Origin: a virus
Lineage: Duplodnaviria > Caudoviricetes
IMG/VR virus record: IMGVR_UViG_3300025782_000067
Coordinates: 1 to 25,217 of that record
Reading direction: 5' to 3' (one strand)
DNA length: 25,217 nt
Shown here: one piece after another, positions 17,668 through 23,753 of the stretch
Layout of the letters: every line of letters starts with the position of its first letter
How positions within the stretch are numbered: position 1 is the first letter of the stretch
Position numbers and translations under genes: made by a program
Notes under the pieces: model-generated
The model's database searches: none
What the model was told of the DNA's origin: nothing
What the model saw: only the letters and a program-made list of their open reading frames with translations

Positions 17668-17739
17668 TGGTCAGTAGCACAATGGCAGTGCACCTCACTG
17701 TTAATGAGGTGGTTGTAGGTTCGAGTCCTACCTGACCAG
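17668..17739 (+). tRNA. tRNA-Asn(GTT)
   Basis: Acceptor stem TGGTCAG/CTGACCA, anticodon arm CCTCA-CTGTTAA-TGAGG, T-arm GTAGG-TTCGAGT-CCTAC. CCA is not encoded. Confidence 0.93.
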
Positions 17740-17744
17740 CAATT

Positions 17745-17818
17745 TGGCAGATGGTGTAATGGCAACACTAGGGACTTTGAATCCCTCGTTCTAGGTTCGA
17801 GTCCTAGTCTGCCAGCCA
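17745..17818 (+). tRNA. tRNA-Gln(TTG)
   Basis: Acceptor stem TGGCAGA/TCTGCCA, anticodon arm AGGGA-CTTTGAA-TCCCT, T-arm CTAGG-TTCGAGT-CCTAG. CCA is encoded. Confidence 0.95.
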
Positions 17819-17835
17819 ATAAATGAAAGGAAATT

Positions 17836-18507
17836 ATGTCTAAAAGAAAACTTCTTGAGTGGGAAAGTCTTCACGGATTTGACAATGAAGTAGTTTCAGC
17901 ACGAACTGCAATACCTGAATGGTATAAGCAAATTCCAAGGGATGTTGTAATTCCTGGTGATACAAACACAATGTCGGCAAAACACTGTCTTCCATTTTTG
18001 GAATCAATGACAACCGGTTATTATGTTACGCTTAACACTGACATTTACGTCGACCGTTCACAGGGTTTTCCAATATTTCGTTATGCCATTGAAGGGGATG
18101 GGGTAAGCGCAAGGCATCAAATTCAAACAGACCCCATGCCGGTTCCGCATGGTTACGAACCCTACTATTGGACATGGACTACGCGCGCCTGCGTACGTCT
18201 TCCTGAAGGGTACAGCGCATTGTACATACACCCAATGAATCGCTTTGAATTGCCATTTATTACGCTTTCTGGCGTTATGGAAAATGACTTCCCACTGATG
18301 GGCGGAAATATTCCCTTCTTCCTAAAAGAAGGTTTTGAAGGTCTTATTCCAGAAGGAACACCAGTTCTACAAATTATACCTTTTTTGCGTGAAGATTGGG
18401 AAAGCAAGAAAGTCAAGGGGTTAGCACATGAAGGACGCGAACTTGAAACCAAAAGCGCCCATGACTGGTACCGTAAAACAAAGTGGCAACGCAAATCTTA
18501 CAAATAA
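17836..18507 (+). CDS. DUF6065-like / dUTPase-like fold protein
   Basis: PEWYK, K.C.PF...MTTGY, LPEGYSALY.HP.N, LSGVM.ND and IPEGTPVLQIIPF patterns recalled from a family frequent in freshwater phages. Confidence 0.6.
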   Translation: MSKRKLLEWESLHGFDNEVVSARTAIPEWYKQIPRDVVIPGDTNTMSAKHCLPFLESMTTGYYVTLNTDIYVDRSQGFPIFRYAIEGDGVSARHQIQTDPMPVPHGYEPYYWTWTTRACVRLPEGYSALYIHPMNRFELPFITLSGVMENDFPLMGGNIPFFLKEGFEGLIPEGTPVLQIIPFLREDWESKKVKGLAHEGRELETKSAHDWYRKTKWQRKSYK

Positions 18508-18518
18508 AGAAAGAAATT

Positions 18519-18851
18519 ATGAAAAAAGTTACCTTAGACCCCAACGTTGAATTTGAAGCAGTTCTTATAGAACTAAAGGAAATGCACGACCGCAAATCCA
18601 AGGATTATGGAAGCCCAGAAGATAGTTGGGCAAATGTTCTTGCTAGTGCGGAATTCGGAACGCCTGGATGGGTAGGCGCCTTGATTCGCATGAATGACAA
18701 ACTTCACCGAATTAAAAACCACATTCGTTACGGAACGCCAATGACGAATGAATCTGTTGAAGACAGTCTTATTGACATGCCTGTGTACAACATTGGCGCT
18801 ATTATTTGCTACCGTCGCGATACATATGGGCCAAACTGGTACAAGCAATGA
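18519..18851 (+). CDS. Nucleotide modification-associated domain 1 (Nmad1/DUF1599, MazG-like) protein
   Basis: RKSKDYG...N, IRMNDKLHRI, ESVEDSLID. Confidence 0.8.
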   Translation: MKKVTLDPNVEFEAVLIELKEMHDRKSKDYGSPEDSWANVLASAEFGTPGWVGALIRMNDKLHRIKNHIRYGTPMTNESVEDSLIDMPVYNIGAIICYRRDTYGPNWYKQ

Positions 18852-19411
18852 CCGAACTTGCTGAAGGTGTACACCTTTTAAAGGATGCAATCCCTGAAAA
18901 AGATTGTGATTACTTTTCGGCAAAACTTATAAGGCTTCGCGAAGAATTTAAACTTAAGGCATTCTTTGACGAACCACAAATCCTTATTATTGAAGAACCC
19001 GAAGAAGAAGATAAGCGTTTTATTGAAAAGTGCTACGAAATCTTCTGTTCCCAGGTAAAGGAAAAATACAACGACGGCCCATACCCGCGCATGGATGGTG
19101 ACCTAAGTATTTGGCGCCCAGGATTATCAGGAACTGCGCACGTGGATAACGCTGACCCAAAAATTAAGGGACATGGCGCAAAATATTCGGGAATCTTTTA
19201 CCTTAACGATAACTTTGAAGGCGGGGAAATTGAATTCCCGAACTTAAACATTTCGTACAAACCAGTAAAGGGCAGTTTCATTTGGTTTACCGATGACCCT
19301 GTAAACCCTGACAATCATTGGTCACACAACTGGGACCAGTACAAACACCTTCATCGTGTTAAAAAGGTTTTAGGAAATTACCGTTGCACCCTTCCAATGT
19401 GGTTGGGGTAG
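18848..19411 (+). CDS. 2OG-Fe(II) oxygenase (prolyl 4-hydroxylase-like)
   Basis: HVD, YLNDNFEGGE, distal H in HRVKKV, and the 2OG-binding R. Confidence 0.9.
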   Translation: MTELAEGVHLLKDAIPEKDCDYFSAKLIRLREEFKLKAFFDEPQILIIEEPEEEDKRFIEKCYEIFCSQVKEKYNDGPYPRMDGDLSIWRPGLSGTAHVDNADPKIKGHGAKYSGIFYLNDNFEGGEIEFPNLNISYKPVKGSFIWFTDDPVNPDNHWSHNWDQYKHLHRVKKVLGNYRCTLPMWLG

Positions 19412-20122: not shown

Positions 20123-20300
20123 AGTTGGTGACGAAGTAGTATTAAGTACAAGTATTGGTCGTGTTGTTGGTTTTAACAGTCGCGACTGGCCTATTGTTGA
20201 ATGGCCAAGTATTGATGAAGTTCTTGTAGAAAATCCTTCCGATATTGAACTTTTAACACCAGCACCACCAAGAAGGCCATTCTGGGATGATGGACGCTAA
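20109..20300 (+). CDS. Small SH3/KOW-like beta-barrel protein
   Basis: FEVGDEV...GRVVGF...IVEW...SDIELL. Confidence 0.6.
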   Translation: MNQFEVGDEVVLSTSIGRVVGFNSRDWPIVEWPSIDEVLVENPSDIELLTPAPPRRPFWDDGR

Positions 20301-21117
20301 TGCGAAGCGGTATATTTCTTGGTGATGCTTTAAAACTGGATTTAGACAGTAGAAGCATCAATCTAATAGTTACGCACCCGCCGTATTTTGGCTTTTCCGG
20401 TTAATAGTTACGCACCCGCCGTATTTTGGCTTTTCCGGTGACCGTTATGGTGGTGAACACGACAAACAAATTATTGTTCCCGACCACAAAAAAGTTGTTA
20501 AGTCACTTGTCAAAGCGACAAAGGAAATGGAACGCGTTCTTGCTGACGATGGAAACATTCTTATTTGCATTGGCGATGTTGCTGGTGCTGGAACGCCCTA
20601 CCACTACGTTTCTGAAGTCTTAAAAAAAACTAACCTTGCTTGTCGTGGATTTTTCTACTGGGATTACAGTAGTTCTGAAATGTTTATTGAATTCAGAAAT
20701 CCTGATACACCCGTCTATGAAAACATAAACCCTTATCACAACTTTTGGATTCACCTTTCAAAGAAAAACTTTAACCACTATTTTGACGAAAGGGTTCTTA
20801 AGCAGAACTGGGGTACTGAATTTGTATCAAATGAAGGTCAAGAATTGGACAAAGAACTTGCCAAAGGCGATGTAGCATTTGGTTCAATTGGTGACACCTA
20901 TCCCATTGGTTGGGCGCACAAGTTTATAAATCTTTTCAGCCGTCCAGGTGATTTTGTTCTTGACCCGTTTGGCGGTACTGGTTTAACTGCCCAGGCAGCA
21001 ATTGAAAACAAACGGTCTTATATTTGCGTTGACATTTCTACGCAGCAAACAGAAGTAGCAAAGCGAAGAATAGAACTTTATTATTCCGACCCCCAAAAGT
21101 ATGGTACATTAAAATAA
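20300..21117 (+). pseudogene. Beta-class N6/N4 DNA methyltransferase interrupted by a 38-bp tandem duplication
   Basis: N-part MRSGIFLGDAL...INLIVTHPPYFGFSG* and C-part FSRPGDFVLDPFGGTG...YICVDI. Removing one repeat copy gives an uninterrupted 259-aa ORF. Confidence 0.85.
20364..20439. repeat. Exact 38-bp tandem duplication
   Basis: TAATAGTTACGCACCCGCCGTATTTTGGCTTTTCCGGT at 20364-20401 and 20402-20439. Confidence 0.98.
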
Positions 21118-21215
21118 TGAATATAATAATCAACTGGGTTGCACACATTTCTTTAGTTGGCGCCATAGCATTTTTCTTATTTGTACTTGCCGGTATTTGT
21201 GGAGCGTGGAAGTAA
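21117..21215 (+). CDS. Small single-TM protein (32 aa)
   Basis: MNIIINWVAHISLVGAIAFFLFVLAGICGAWK; TAATG overlaps at both ends. Confidence 0.6.
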   Translation: MNIIINWVAHISLVGAIAFFLFVLAGICGAWK

Positions 21216-21433
21216 TGACACCCGAGGAACGTCAAGAAATACGAGAAAGGCATTTTCTTTGGAAAGAAAGAGAGTGCAATTATGACGGCGAGTCCTACCC
21301 CTGCGACGTAATCAAAGTACTTGACTCTTACGACAAACAAGACGCTGACATTCTTGAAATTATTCACACTTATGACGAAGACCCCAATAGTAAAGTTCTT
21401 CGCATTTGGACGTTGCTTGGCAACAGGGCTTAA
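21215..21433 (+). CDS. Hypothetical protein
   Basis: MTPEERQEIRERH...C..D...YPCD; coupled start. Confidence 0.65.
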   Translation: MTPEERQEIRERHFLWKERECNYDGESYPCDVIKVLDSYDKQDADILEIIHTYDEDPNSKVLRIWTLLGNRA

Positions 21434-21449
21434 GAAGGGAAATTAACTA

Positions 21450-21539
21450 ATGTTCTATATTACTTTTGGATTGACCTGGGCCATTGGTGTTGTTACTGGT
21501 GCACTTTTGATGCTTATTTGGGACATGTTAGTTAACTAA
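21450..21539 (+). CDS. Small single-TM protein (29 aa)
   Basis: MFYITFGLTWAIGVVTGALLMLIWDMLVN; AAGGGA upstream; TAATG overlap with the next gene. Confidence 0.55.
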   Translation: MFYITFGLTWAIGVVTGALLMLIWDMLVN

Positions 21540-21782: not shown

Positions 21783-23753
21783 GTGGACATGTTTGAAAAC
21801 GCAACGCTTTTTGAAGTGGAAAAAAAGCCTGCTGTATCACTTGCCGATAAATTTGTAGTACCACCATTTTCTGTACTGGATAGACGCCAGGGTGAATGGC
21901 AGAATCGTAAACGACGTTGGCTTCAAATGGGTATGCGTTCTGAAGTTGGTCGCAATGAAAACCTTGCGTACACGGGTCAGGTTTCATTGAACGCAATAAC
22001 GGAAAACGAAGAACAAGTTGGCACTTCTGTATTCGACCCAGTTATTTGCGAAGTTGCCTATCGCTGGTTTAGCCCCGAAGGTGGAAGCATTCTTGACCCC
22101 TTTGCTGGGGGTAGCGTTCGCGGAATCGTTGCTTCACAACTAAACCGTTCATACACTGGTTATGACATTCGCCCCGAACAGGTTCAATCAAACTACGACC
22201 AGATTGACCTTGCTAATTCGGAATTTCCACCAACATGGATTACTAGCGATATTCGCAATAGCGCTGTAGTTGCTGAAGGGCCAAATCATATTGCCCTTTC
22301 GCATGACGACAGGCCAATTATGTCTGTGAATTCCAATAACCCTTTTATTCTTGAAGCCGTAGACCTTTATAATTCAACATCTTCAATCCCTATGCGTAAT
22401 GACTGGCATAACGTGCCAGTTTCAATGGTTCCATACCTTCAGTATGCATATCAACTTTCTTCCTTTAACATGTCAACAGAACCAAACCGCGTTTTTTCTA
22501 CCGCAGTTGATAACGGAACAATGTGGGTTGCTTTTTCTGGCGGCAAGGATGGCATGGCTGCCGCAATTAAAGCAAGGAATGAAGGTTTTAAAGTAATTCT
22601 TTACCACATAACTGGAATCAATCGTGCGTGGCCTGATGAACTTAAATGGGCACAGGAAGCGGCAGACCAGATGAACATGCCATTATTTGTTGATAAAGTT
22701 TCTATTAGCGGTGCAAAAAACGGCTTTGTAGAAATGCCAACCAAAAACCAGGTTATTACCGAAATGATGATTGGCCGTATGATGGAATACGGTGGTTCCC
22801 ATTACACCTTGGGGGTTTTTTCTAACGACATTACTTCAGCAAATTGGACACTTGATTGGTCGGATAATCCAGAATCAGTAGAACTTTTTCATCAACACCT
22901 TGAATCCAGGTTTCCTGGTTTGCAGTTTCACCAGTACCTAAAAAACAGCACAGAATCAATACATGTTGTTGCTAGTGAAGGATTAATCAATTTTGCGCAT
23001 GGTTGCATGTCACAAATGCGTTTCCGTGATAAAACTAAAAAAGCCAATGAAACCAAATTTGGTGAAATCCTTCCTGGGCGGTGTGGTTCTTGCAAAAAAT
23101 GCGTAAAGGAATACCTAAACCTTTTTGCATTGGAAGTAATCCAGTTTAATAAAGACTTCTATGAACACTGTCTTTCAAAAGCCAAAGAACTTCTAAAGGA
23201 AGAATTTACCAACGGCGCAGGTATTGATTCTATTGTTGACGAAAGTTTCAAGGGCAACATCTACCCCGAAGAACCATTCAACGCACCACTTAACGTAGAA
23301 ATGCCCGAAAAAATTTTGGGGGGGCAGCCTGAAGGTTACGACTTCATTTTTACGTGCCCACCCTATGCGGACCTAGAAGTCTACAGCGATGACCCACAAG
23401 ACCTTTCTAACATGCCCTACGACCAGTTCCTAAAGGAATACAAGGAAATCTTCGAAGCAGCAGTAAAGCAGTTAAAGAACGACCGATTCATTGGCATTGT
23501 AATTAGCGACGCACGAATCCAAAAGGGCGACGGTCACTACTACGGCCTTGTAGCCGACACGGTAAATGTTATGCGTGAAATAGGTTGCGAACTGTACAAC
23601 GACTTGATTATTGTGGACCCCGTTGGTACCCTAGCCATCCGTTCGGAAAAACAAATGCGTTCTTCCCGAAAGGTTGGACGCGGGCACCAACACATGCTTA
23701 TATTTGTAAAAGGAAACGGCAGAAATGCCGCCAAAGAATGCGGGGAAATCTAA
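21783..23753 (+). CDS. DNA amino-methyltransferase with inserted QueC-like PP-loop ATPase domain
   Basis: MTase N-half: PPFSVLD, TSVFDPV, ILDPFAGGSVRG, GYDIRPEQV. Insert: VAFSGGKDG, PTKN, GC, CGSCKKC. MTase C-half: DFIFTCPPYADLEVYS...HQHMLIFVKG. Confidence 0.85.
   Translation: MDMFENATLFEVEKKPAVSLADKFVVPPFSVLDRRQGEWQNRKRRWLQMGMRSEVGRNENLAYTGQVSLNAITENEEQVGTSVFDPVICEVAYRWFSPEGGSILDPFAGGSVRGIVASQLNRSYTGYDIRPEQVQSNYDQIDLANSEFPPTWITSDIRNSAVVAEGPNHIALSHDDRPIMSVNSNNPFILEAVDLYNSTSSIPMRNDWHNVPVSMVPYLQYAYQLSSFNMSTEPNRVFSTAVDNGTMWVAFSGGKDGMAAAIKARNEGFKVILYHITGINRAWPDELKWAQEAADQMNMPLFVDKVSISGAKNGFVEMPTKNQVITEMMIGRMMEYGGSHYTLGVFSNDITSANWTLDWSDNPESVELFHQHLESRFPGLQFHQYLKNSTESIHVVASEGLINFAHGCMSQMRFRDKTKKANETKFGEILPGRCGSCKKCVKEYLNLFALEVIQFNKDFYEHCLSKAKELLKEEFTNGAGIDSIVDESFKGNIYPEEPFNAPLNVEMPEKILGGQPEGYDFIFTCPPYADLEVYSDDPQDLSNMPYDQFLKEYKEIFEAAVKQLKNDRFIGIVISDARIQKGDGHYYGLVADTVNVMREIGCELYNDLIIVDPVGTLAIRSEKQMRSSRKVGRGHQHMLIFVKGNGRNAAKECGEI

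Follow-up and report, generated by a model that had tools for sequence, protein, structure and literature searches.

A whole PP-loop domain nested inside a phage amino-methyltransferase: a candidate two-step DNA-modifying enzyme

A tailed phage encodes a 656-aa protein in which a whole PP-loop domain is lodged between the SAM-binding and catalytic halves of an amino-methyltransferase, a nested arrangement that is real, recurrent and uncharacterised and that has a fair chance of representing a new base chemistry. The reading preferred here, to which a probability of about 0.4 is assigned, is that the methyltransferase fold would install a carboxyl-bearing group from SAM and that the PP-loop insert would adenylate the carboxyl, such that the two together may constitute a two-step DNA-modifying unit.

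The fusion gene and its phage context

The gene was found in the window, which is the whole stretch of 25,217 nucleotides that was analysed (IMG/VR record IMGVR_UViG_3300025782_000067), where it occupies positions 21783-23753 of the plus strand as an uninterrupted open reading frame with a GTG start. The SGGKDG, CGSCKKC and CPPY motifs begin at 22536, 23082 and 23355, respectively, and rechecking both frame and motifs returned exactly the coordinates given in the original prediction of a single 656-aa ORF. Profiles place the N-terminal half of the methyltransferase at aa 11-160, the PP-loop domain at aa 177-504 (E 4e-134, against a profile that contains this very sequence) and the C-terminal half at aa 515-655. 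The proposal that the SAM-binding and catalytic halves enclose an entire adenine-nucleotide alpha-hydrolase domain is supported by these placements and by the fold matches. The N-terminus has no ParB domain, a domain that most of the nested relatives possess. In a full-length model (pTM 0.63) the segment aa 142-172, which includes the WITSD motif, has a pLDDT below 50.

Could so unusual a layout have been created during assembly? The same 656-aa ORF is present in three IMG/VR contigs, and in 4/4 metagenome runs both junctions are spanned by one contig of flat, even depth with no joint that skips the insert, which rules out the chimeric assembly that had been raised as a concern. The population differences that fall within the ORF are all synonymous (3/3). 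The runs listed as carrying the stretch number 24, all of them 2017 freshwater metagenomes that may stem from one campaign, with 15 marked as possible sources; there is no RNA run among the 24 listed.

The window is a tailed-phage fragment whose minus strand encodes a terminase, a portal protein and a major capsid protein together with weak sheath and tail-tube matches, and whose plus strand carries a block consisting of a 2OG-Fe(II) oxygenase, GroES, a second methylase, a small PnuC-like membrane protein and the fusion gene. Among related contigs the longest reaches 36 kb, corresponding to 41% of a complete genome. Within the plus-strand block, two neighbours at 18483..19411 match DUF1599, 'nucleotide modification associated domain 1' (weakly, at E 0.003, which is under the cut-off), and a 2OG-Fe(II) oxygenase (E 5e-8). 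The second amino-methyltransferase, at 20300..21117 on the plus strand, is possibly an unrelated neighbour and has the opposite motif order, with HPPY ahead of DPFGG; it is 259 aa long in the IMG/VR copies. The window's version of this second gene has a 38-bp duplication near 20364-20401, which is present in 0/4 runs. Matches to folE, queD, queE and dpdA were absent from the 32 window ORFs, in line with what had been noticed originally, and from 83 hand-picked members of the 190 neighbour ORFs, with 41% of the genome seen.

The methyltransferase halves

The N-terminal half (21813..22262, plus strand, aa 11-160) holds the family N-terminal segment, TSVFDP, DPFAGGSVRG, YDIR and, at aa 152-156, WITSD, where DPFAGGSVRG, YDIR and WITSD are what we take to be motif I, motif II and a motif III-like element. 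The C-terminal half (23325..23750, plus strand, aa 515-656) opens with motif IV, CPPY, at aa 525-528 and continues with strands to the C-terminus. Pfam N6_N4_Mtase (PF01555) scores above its cut-off over two stretches (E 9e-14), which together with DPFAGG and CPPY places the protein by sequence in the N4-cytosine/N6-adenine DNA methyltransferase family, and PHROG 12517 matches at E 5e-89. By sequence and fold the enzyme resembles ordinary N4/N6 methylases. Its relatives have CPPY in 78/82 cases and SPPY in the other 4/82, as against an expected (S/D/N)PPY, so that motif IV is a variant.

The inserted PP-loop domain

The insert (22311..23294, plus strand, aa 177-504) is about 330 aa in length and consists of a small N-terminal subdomain followed by a core like that of QueC and Cap9. 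Its key residues are the P-loop S252-G257, N280, E286, P319-K321-N322 and D361, with C408, C434, C437 and C440 forming a predicted Zn site. The S252-G-G-K-D sequence places it in the PP-loop superfamily, with G254 conserved in 129/129 and D256 in 128/129 aligned members, and every residue that is invariant across the PP-loop family is present. The P-loop ends in S in 112/129 members and in G in 10/129, the latter including the nearest free-standing and fused relatives; the G after SGGKD, once suggested as a sign of diverged chemistry, is better read as a variant of this subclade.

An AlphaFold model of the insert, built from the 129-row alignment, has a pLDDT of 91.7 and a pTM of 0.90, and its top Foldseek matches among viral models are mostly annotated as QueC, with TM by target of up to 0.73, so that the adenine-nucleotide alpha-hydrolase core anticipated for this region is recovered. 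The nearest cores in the PDB, compared by means of the full-length rather than the insert-only model, are those of Cap9 (9nto; TM by target 0.79, rmsd 3.8 Å) and QueC (0.70 for 3bl5, and 0.63). LarE, TtuA and TilS return E-values similar to those of Cap9 and QueC but with poor geometry (TM by target 0.24-0.43, rmsd 12-21 Å). The fits are 0.25-0.43 and 12-21 Å for TtuA and LarE, and 0.24-0.38 and 13-17 Å for TilS. The TtuA sequence match is confined to profile positions 68-136, which is the P-loop region. Membership of the TtuA/TtcA/LarE sulfurtransferases was rejected on the absence of both a whole-fold match and a three-cysteine Fe-S site. In an Atlas search unnamed viral clusters came top (TM 0.75) and MurL next (TM 0.65 over 287 aa, predicted model against predicted model), with MurL the only named family to align over the N-terminal subdomain as well, a subdomain that QueC does not have. 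The query has no NCBIfam match, and among the family members 1/129 matches the MurL model NF041275, weakly (E 2e-6), and 1/129 has a weak match to asparagine synthase. No mur genes were present among the 83 of 190 neighbour ORFs scanned, which leaves the insert outside MurL by sequence match and by gene neighbourhood.

How close, then, is the insert to QueC? Profile comparison with four QueC proteins (probability 96%) aligns the P-loop and a conserved E, and pairs PxKN to PARN and SD to YPD. The motifs of QueC itself are YxQxHxxE, with an essential Y35, VPxRN, with an essential R99, YPDC, with an essential aromatic, and C(x)8CxxCxxC (PMC13329287, in the part of the text available). At the first of these the insert family has GINRxxPxE, in which only the E aligns and the essential Y is absent. 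The VPxRN position reads MPTKN in the insert (K in 118/129 members, R in 10/129), and the YPDC position reads WSDN, where the D is invariant and the aromatic often kept but the P and C are not (C in 10/129). The four cysteines are retained in 129, 129, 129 and 127 of 129 members, with a first gap of 25-28 residues as against 8 in QueC, and at the SGGxDS position of QueC the insert reads SGGKDG. These alterations to YxQxHxxE, VPxRN, YPDC and the first cysteine spacing rule out a canonical QueC. The description of the insert as QueC-like thus survives for its fold, its P-loop and its four cysteines, but not for the essential residues of QueC, which are replaced. From its sequence, the insert is a non-QueC member of an unnamed and almost purely viral PP-loop family.

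Distribution, linkage and layouts

At E<=0.001 the PP-loop family comprises 506 representatives; the stricter threshold of E<=1e-10 leaves 370 clusters, and the listing covers 150 of these. A search of 185,579 prokaryote genomes with a strict motif that misses variants gave 33 matches with one true member, on a 3.3-kb MAG contig, and among 50,697 cultured-phage records the family occurs only in Staphylococcus phage Alsa_1, where it lies in pieces in the record. Judged by such sequence searches, the family is viral and almost absent from cells. In IMG/VR there were 37 motif matches, which yielded 35 family members at 28 distinct loci. At 21/28 of these loci, a count that includes this phage and is uncorrected for kinship, a member of the present methyltransferase family is fused to the PP-loop or lies within 5 kb (<=5 kb), while a further 2/28 have another motif-I-first amino-methyltransferase, such that the PP-loop family is found beside two methyltransferase types. 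The flanks of the remaining 5/28 contain no methyltransferase, with two of the five at contig ends; the other three have flanks of about 5 kb on both sides (L047, L051) or of 5 and 3.6 kb (L053). In L047 and L051 the PP-loop gene is accompanied by a ParB-like and a DUF2156-like gene, labels given by reading the sequences, for which Pfam returned no match. L013/L020 (E ~1e-4), which has the look of a PAPS-reductase-type protein, was not counted. Many loci abut terminase or replication genes.

The methyltransferase family comprises 1,213 proteins and an estimated ~1,300 viral stretches. Flanks, many of them short, were available for 80/120 motif matches from this estimated total of ~1,300, giving 76 distinct loci, at which a PP-loop gene was found in 2 (one being this phage), a PLP enzyme in 16 and neither in 58. 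The linkage is one-sided in that the PP-loop is usually with the methyltransferase and the methyltransferase mostly without the PP-loop. The PLP partner sits beside or inside the methyltransferase at its 16/76 loci, with a PP-loop gene in none of these 16, and a PLP or short PLP-like gene is present in only 7/28 PP-loop loci. Its profile matches M6 gp52 (E 1e-29) and ViI gp226 (E 3e-26), with no match to two control proteins, and one such partner, P0217, is named by its source as being of the ACC deaminase/D-cysteine desulfhydrase type. Cultured phages in which this methyltransferase occurs together with the PLP partner include mycobacteriophages Vincenzo and AlanGrant, Pseudanabaena phage Pam4 and Erythrobacter phage ZS04.

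Nesting of the PP-loop within the same methyltransferase family is seen in seven other complete proteins (P0002, P0003, P0016, P0021, P0022, P0023 and P0030) and in two partial forms (P0024 and L048), with ParB-type domains fused in most nested forms. In P0016 and P0021 a PLP domain is nested together with the PP-loop, in P0002 a GNAT domain is, and the partial L048 adds DUF2156. Other layouts include end-to-end fusions of methyltransferase and PP-loop (P0014 and P0128), fusions of the PP-loop to PLP or GNAT domains only (P0098 and P0117) and, at L028, three abutting genes for the N-terminal half, the PP-loop and the C-terminal half. The search for homologues that had been called for, with and without the insert or with other enzymes in its place, thus returned nested, free, end-to-end and split forms, and PLP enzymes, GNAT (P0002, P0117) and DUF2156 (L048) are found at the same methyltransferase loop. 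The insertion site is after the WITSD strand here and before the W..[GE]D strand, in the neighbouring loop, in the seven nested relatives. In quick trees the methyltransferase halves of this fusion group with an uninterrupted methyltransferase, P0156 (SH-aLRT 96), and the PP-loop domains of nested and free proteins are intermixed; starred branches force at least two gains or losses in the methyltransferase tree, which excludes P0253, and at least four in the PP-loop tree. The module usually exists as separate genes, with the fusion as one of its layouts, and the simplest reading is of operon genes that fuse and split repeatedly at the loops either side of one strand, events that duplication followed by deletion would produce. 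A complex prediction for the free-standing methyltransferase/PP-loop pair of L007 with SAM and ATP scored 0.01, which is uninformative either way.

Proposed chemistry and its alternatives

In the preferred two-step reading, a flipped base would receive, on its exocyclic amine, a carboxyl-bearing group from SAM, most likely 3-amino-3-carboxypropyl, after which the insert, as its fold suggests, would adenylate the carboxyl with ATP and an amine or ammonia would displace AMP to leave an amide. We infer phage DNA as the substrate, a non-methyl transferred group and the final product alike. The target may be cytosine N4, to which the C/SPPY motif presumably, and weakly, points, and the likely purpose would be protection from restriction enzymes. 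More tentative, and something that could readily prove wrong, is the broader proposal that the amino-methyltransferase family as a whole consists of aminocarboxypropyl transferases, which would equip cytosine N4 (or adenine N6) with an amino-acid handle for interchangeable tailoring enzymes, PP-loop, PLP, GNAT or DUF2156, housed in one permissive loop. Enzymes of the GNAT and DUF2156 folds acylate amines. M6 gp52 and ViI gp226 are decarboxylases of amino acids carried on DNA bases (PMC8989533, in the part available), and QueC acts with ATP on the carboxy compound CDG (PMC13329287, likewise in part). Relatives of the insert and the PLP, GNAT and DUF2156 enzymes therefore all act on carboxyl or amino groups, which suggests a substrate that has both; the aminocarboxypropyl arm of SAM has both, and the only group-transfer enzyme that the loci have in common binds SAM, which favours the handle model. 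Where a PLP enzyme is present without a PP-loop, at 16/76 loci, either the methyltransferase fold or an unseen gene would have to supply the amino-acid substrate.

Several observations argue against the handle model. The 58/76 methyltransferase loci that have no partner give the enzyme the look of a self-sufficient plain methylase, its likeness to ordinary N4/N6 methylases points the same way, 5/28 PP-loop loci have no methyltransferase in their flanks, and this phage's 36-kb contig (41% complete) carries no PLP partner gene. No enzyme with a PPY motif is known to us to transfer aminocarboxypropyl. The authors of the CmoX study state that no N6/N4 carboxymethyltransferase was found beside CmoA (PMC12783734, in the part of the text available). 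The original prediction of a base-modification module is accordingly retained in part: the domain recurs, travels with the methyltransferase and fits a phage module, and the option of thio chemistry has become the weaker one, with TtuA and LarE at 0.25-0.43 compared with 0.79 for Cap9 and 0.63-0.70 for QueC.

What else could the fusion be doing? One possible, if rather doubtful, alternative is that the methyltransferase produces no more than m4C or m6A and the PP-loop makes a separate change to a base on the same DNA, with the fusion only co-delivering the two; in a TilS-like example, a base carbonyl would be activated and an amino acid or polyamine attached. The ordinary amino-methyltransferase motifs and the many partnerless methyltransferase loci (58/76) sit well with this, as does the occurrence of the PP-loop with two methyltransferase types and, in L047 and L051, with ParB-like and DUF2156-like genes instead, but the TilS fit is poor (TM by target 0.24-0.38, rmsd 13-17 Å) and the PLP decarboxylase homologue at 16/76 methyltransferase loci without a PP-loop is left unexplained. 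It is unlikely that the substrate is something other than DNA, be it a SAM-derived small molecule, a polyamine-like donor, a protein or the cell wall, as for MurL, Cap9 and QatC. ParB-type domains are present in most nested forms, many loci abut terminase or replication genes and the characterised homologues of the PLP partner act on DNA (PMC8989533, in part), all of which count against such a substrate even though Cap9 and QatC modify proteins (PMC13329287, in part) and MurL, alone among named families in aligning over the N-terminal subdomain, acts on a peptidoglycan precursor (PMC5808125, in part).

Sulfur chemistry is improbable enough to carry little weight. Here the PP-loop would adenylate a base carbonyl and insert sulfur, with the PLP enzyme acting as a cysteine desulfhydrase and the methyltransferase methylating base or sulfur, a scheme for which DndA and DndC provide a precedent as a PLP and PP-loop pair acting on DNA (PMC10853773, in part). 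TtuA ranks first in profile searches, over the P-loop region only, and P0217 is of the desulfhydrase type by source name; the whole-fold fit to TtuA and LarE is however poor, the four-cysteine pattern is that of QueC and not the three-cysteine Fe-S site of LarE, and a PLP or PLP-like gene is found in just 7/28 PP-loop loci. There is also only a slight chance that duplication and deletion in the operon left the present fusion as a neutral or partly dead by-product, with one or both activities lost: its junction follows WITSD, where those of the seven other complete nested proteins precede W..[GE]D, its ParB domain is absent and its P-loop ends in G, yet all family-invariant residues are retained, the population differences are 3/3 synonymous and the same G is found in free-standing relatives. 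Slighter still is the prospect of a diverged QueC that serves a 7-deazaguanine pathway, whether by making preQ0 or ADG or by linking host CDG to a protein. Cap9 and QueC offer the best structural cores and some family members exceed the Pfam QueC (PF06508) cut-off by way of the P-loop region, but YxQxHxxE, VPxRN and YPDC are lost and folE, queD, queE and dpdA are absent among the 32 window ORFs and 83/190 neighbours.

Most of the known hypermodifications in phages are built on deazaguanine or on a handle, hydroxymethyl or carboxymethyl, at C5 of a pyrimidine. If the preferred two-step reading is true, placing the handle on an exocyclic amine would open a new path to hypermodification, and the annotation of more than a thousand viral 'methylase' stretches would change. 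The PP-loop family, with its 370 clusters, so far has neither name nor function. Even if the methyltransferase only methylates, its fold accommodates entire enzymes to each side of a single strand, where it can also be divided into separate genes. As a 656-aa single chain without ParB, the present protein is among the shortest complete fusions seen, which makes it convenient for expression and testing.

Comparison with known systems

Neither the PP-loop family, its nesting in an amino-methyltransferase nor an activity for this methyltransferase subfamily was found in the literature searched, a scope outside which lie supplements and Iyer et al. 2013 NAR. The words 'methyltransferase', 'methylase' and 'MurL' are absent from the main text of the 2026 survey of the QueC family (PMC13329287), PMC12704722 contains none of the terms sought, and PMC10853773 and PMC13458397, in the parts available, provide general background only. 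The kind of system is known, since ParB-terminase methylases and the CmoX/CmoY pairing of methyltransferase and ligase have already been described.

With QueC and Cap9 the insert shares the core fold, the SGGxD loop, the four-cysteine site and E, N and D residues that are conserved in equivalent places; it differs in having some 70 extra N-terminal residues, 25-28 rather than 8 residues between the first two cysteines, K in place of the essential R, no YPDC and no queuosine genes among the neighbours scanned. MurL, which releases AMP while epimerising a terminal glutamate on a peptidoglycan precursor (PMC5808125, in part), is alike in that the Atlas match of 287 aa takes in the N-terminal subdomain and that it activates an amino-acid substrate, converting ATP to AMP; the likeness is one between predicted models, and the insert family is viral with DNA-enzyme neighbours, whereas MurL occurs with mur genes. 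The amino-methyltransferases of ParB-terminase loci (PHROG 12517/498) are predicted phage DNA modifiers (PMC4738411, in part), and many relatives of the present gene share with them the ParB fusion and the position next to terminase. This gene, in contrast, is without ParB and lies ~7 kb from the terminase on the opposite strand, and insertions of PP-loop or PLP domains go unmentioned for these enzymes in the part of PMC4738411 available.

The thymidine hypermodification pathways of M6 and ViI (PMC8989533, in part) are similar in having PLP enzymes, gp52 and gp226, to which the PLP partner is homologous, and in their use of GNAT tailoring, but the handle there is 5-hmdU and the amino acid is added by aGPT-Pplase2. 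A transferase of the aGPT-Pplase2 type was not noticed beside the methyltransferase, and the gene of this window has no PLP domain. The closest parallel in logic is CmoX/CmoY of Synechococcus phage S-B43, in which a C5-methyltransferase homologue installs a carboxyl handle that an AMP-forming ligase amidates (PMC12783734, in part). Both systems combine a DNA-methyltransferase homologue with an AMP-forming ligase, there an asparagine synthetase homologue, and often with ParB, and the same logic is proposed here. Membership of the CmoX/CmoY system is ruled out by the amino-methyltransferase fold, which is not that of a C5-methyltransferase with an SPPC motif, and no CmoA-type match was found among the window ORFs and the neighbours scanned with Pfam. 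CmoX is a C5 enzyme that uses carboxy-SAM from CmoA, whereas the present enzyme is of the N4/N6 type, and its candidate ligase is like QueC and MurL and is nested inside the methyltransferase itself.

Genomic settings of the PP-loop gene in other phages

One set of related phages (viral loci L025, L031, L040, L043, L046 and L054) carries its PP-loop and methyltransferase genes amid genes for clamp-loader subunits and away from the terminase, a setting that suggests that the PP-loop/methyltransferase module of this group is coupled to replication. On the jumbo-phage contigs L047 (5096-6172) and L051 the PP-loop gene is followed by a gene that, judged by eye, appears to be DUF2156-like, for which there was no Pfam match, and no methyltransferase lies within 5 kb of the PP-loop gene on either contig. 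The only cultured phage found to carry the PP-loop family, among 50,697 records, is Staphylococcus phage Alsa_1 (L004, 6663-9423), where the gene order runs from the methyltransferase through the PP-loop gene, which is in pieces in the record, to the gene for the PLP enzyme.

Splitting and duplication of the methyltransferase

The methyltransferase is commonly divided at a second site, 3' of the ParB domain and the family N-terminal segment, so that two ORFs encode it (L064, L065, L068, L072, L077, L082, L086, L097, L100, L115, L118, L121, L122, L129, L132, L139 and L140). In the related protein P0155 a ParB-methyltransferase is followed, within one chain, by a second and degenerate methyltransferase copy, and a tandem duplicate of this type could be a forerunner of nested insertions.

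The second methylase and its surroundings

In the window the frame of the upstream methylase is shifted by a 38-bp tandem duplication (20364-20401), which is probably an assembly slip since it is absent from the three IMG/VR copies and from all four of the metagenome runs examined. Between this methylase and the PnuC-like gene lies a variable patch (21200-21510), where differences are clustered and contigs short, and within which depth spikes near 21216-21342. Further upstream, the stretch between two ORFs at 17670-17830 reads like putative tRNA genes, as judged from ORF translations only.

Accompanying small protein and cysteine-rich segment

A conserved protein of 160-170 aa is encoded near the methyltransferase and PP-loop genes in five of the 28 PP-loop loci (L008, 10905-11423; L022, 2250-2732; L029, 5831-6493; L049, 1948-2460; L050, 5823-6314). 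Its motifs, CF(T/S)CGNA and PTGSGET, would make it resemble a miniature PLP fold-II enzyme; a Pfam search gave no match, and neither the PLP profile nor M6 gp52 matched it. A cysteine-rich segment (C..G.CC), likewise with no Pfam match, follows the N-terminal half of the methyltransferase in L028 (5812-7308, minus strand) and precedes the PP-loop domain in the related protein P0018, and its resemblance is, we presume, to the metal-binding domains of the YkgJ type.
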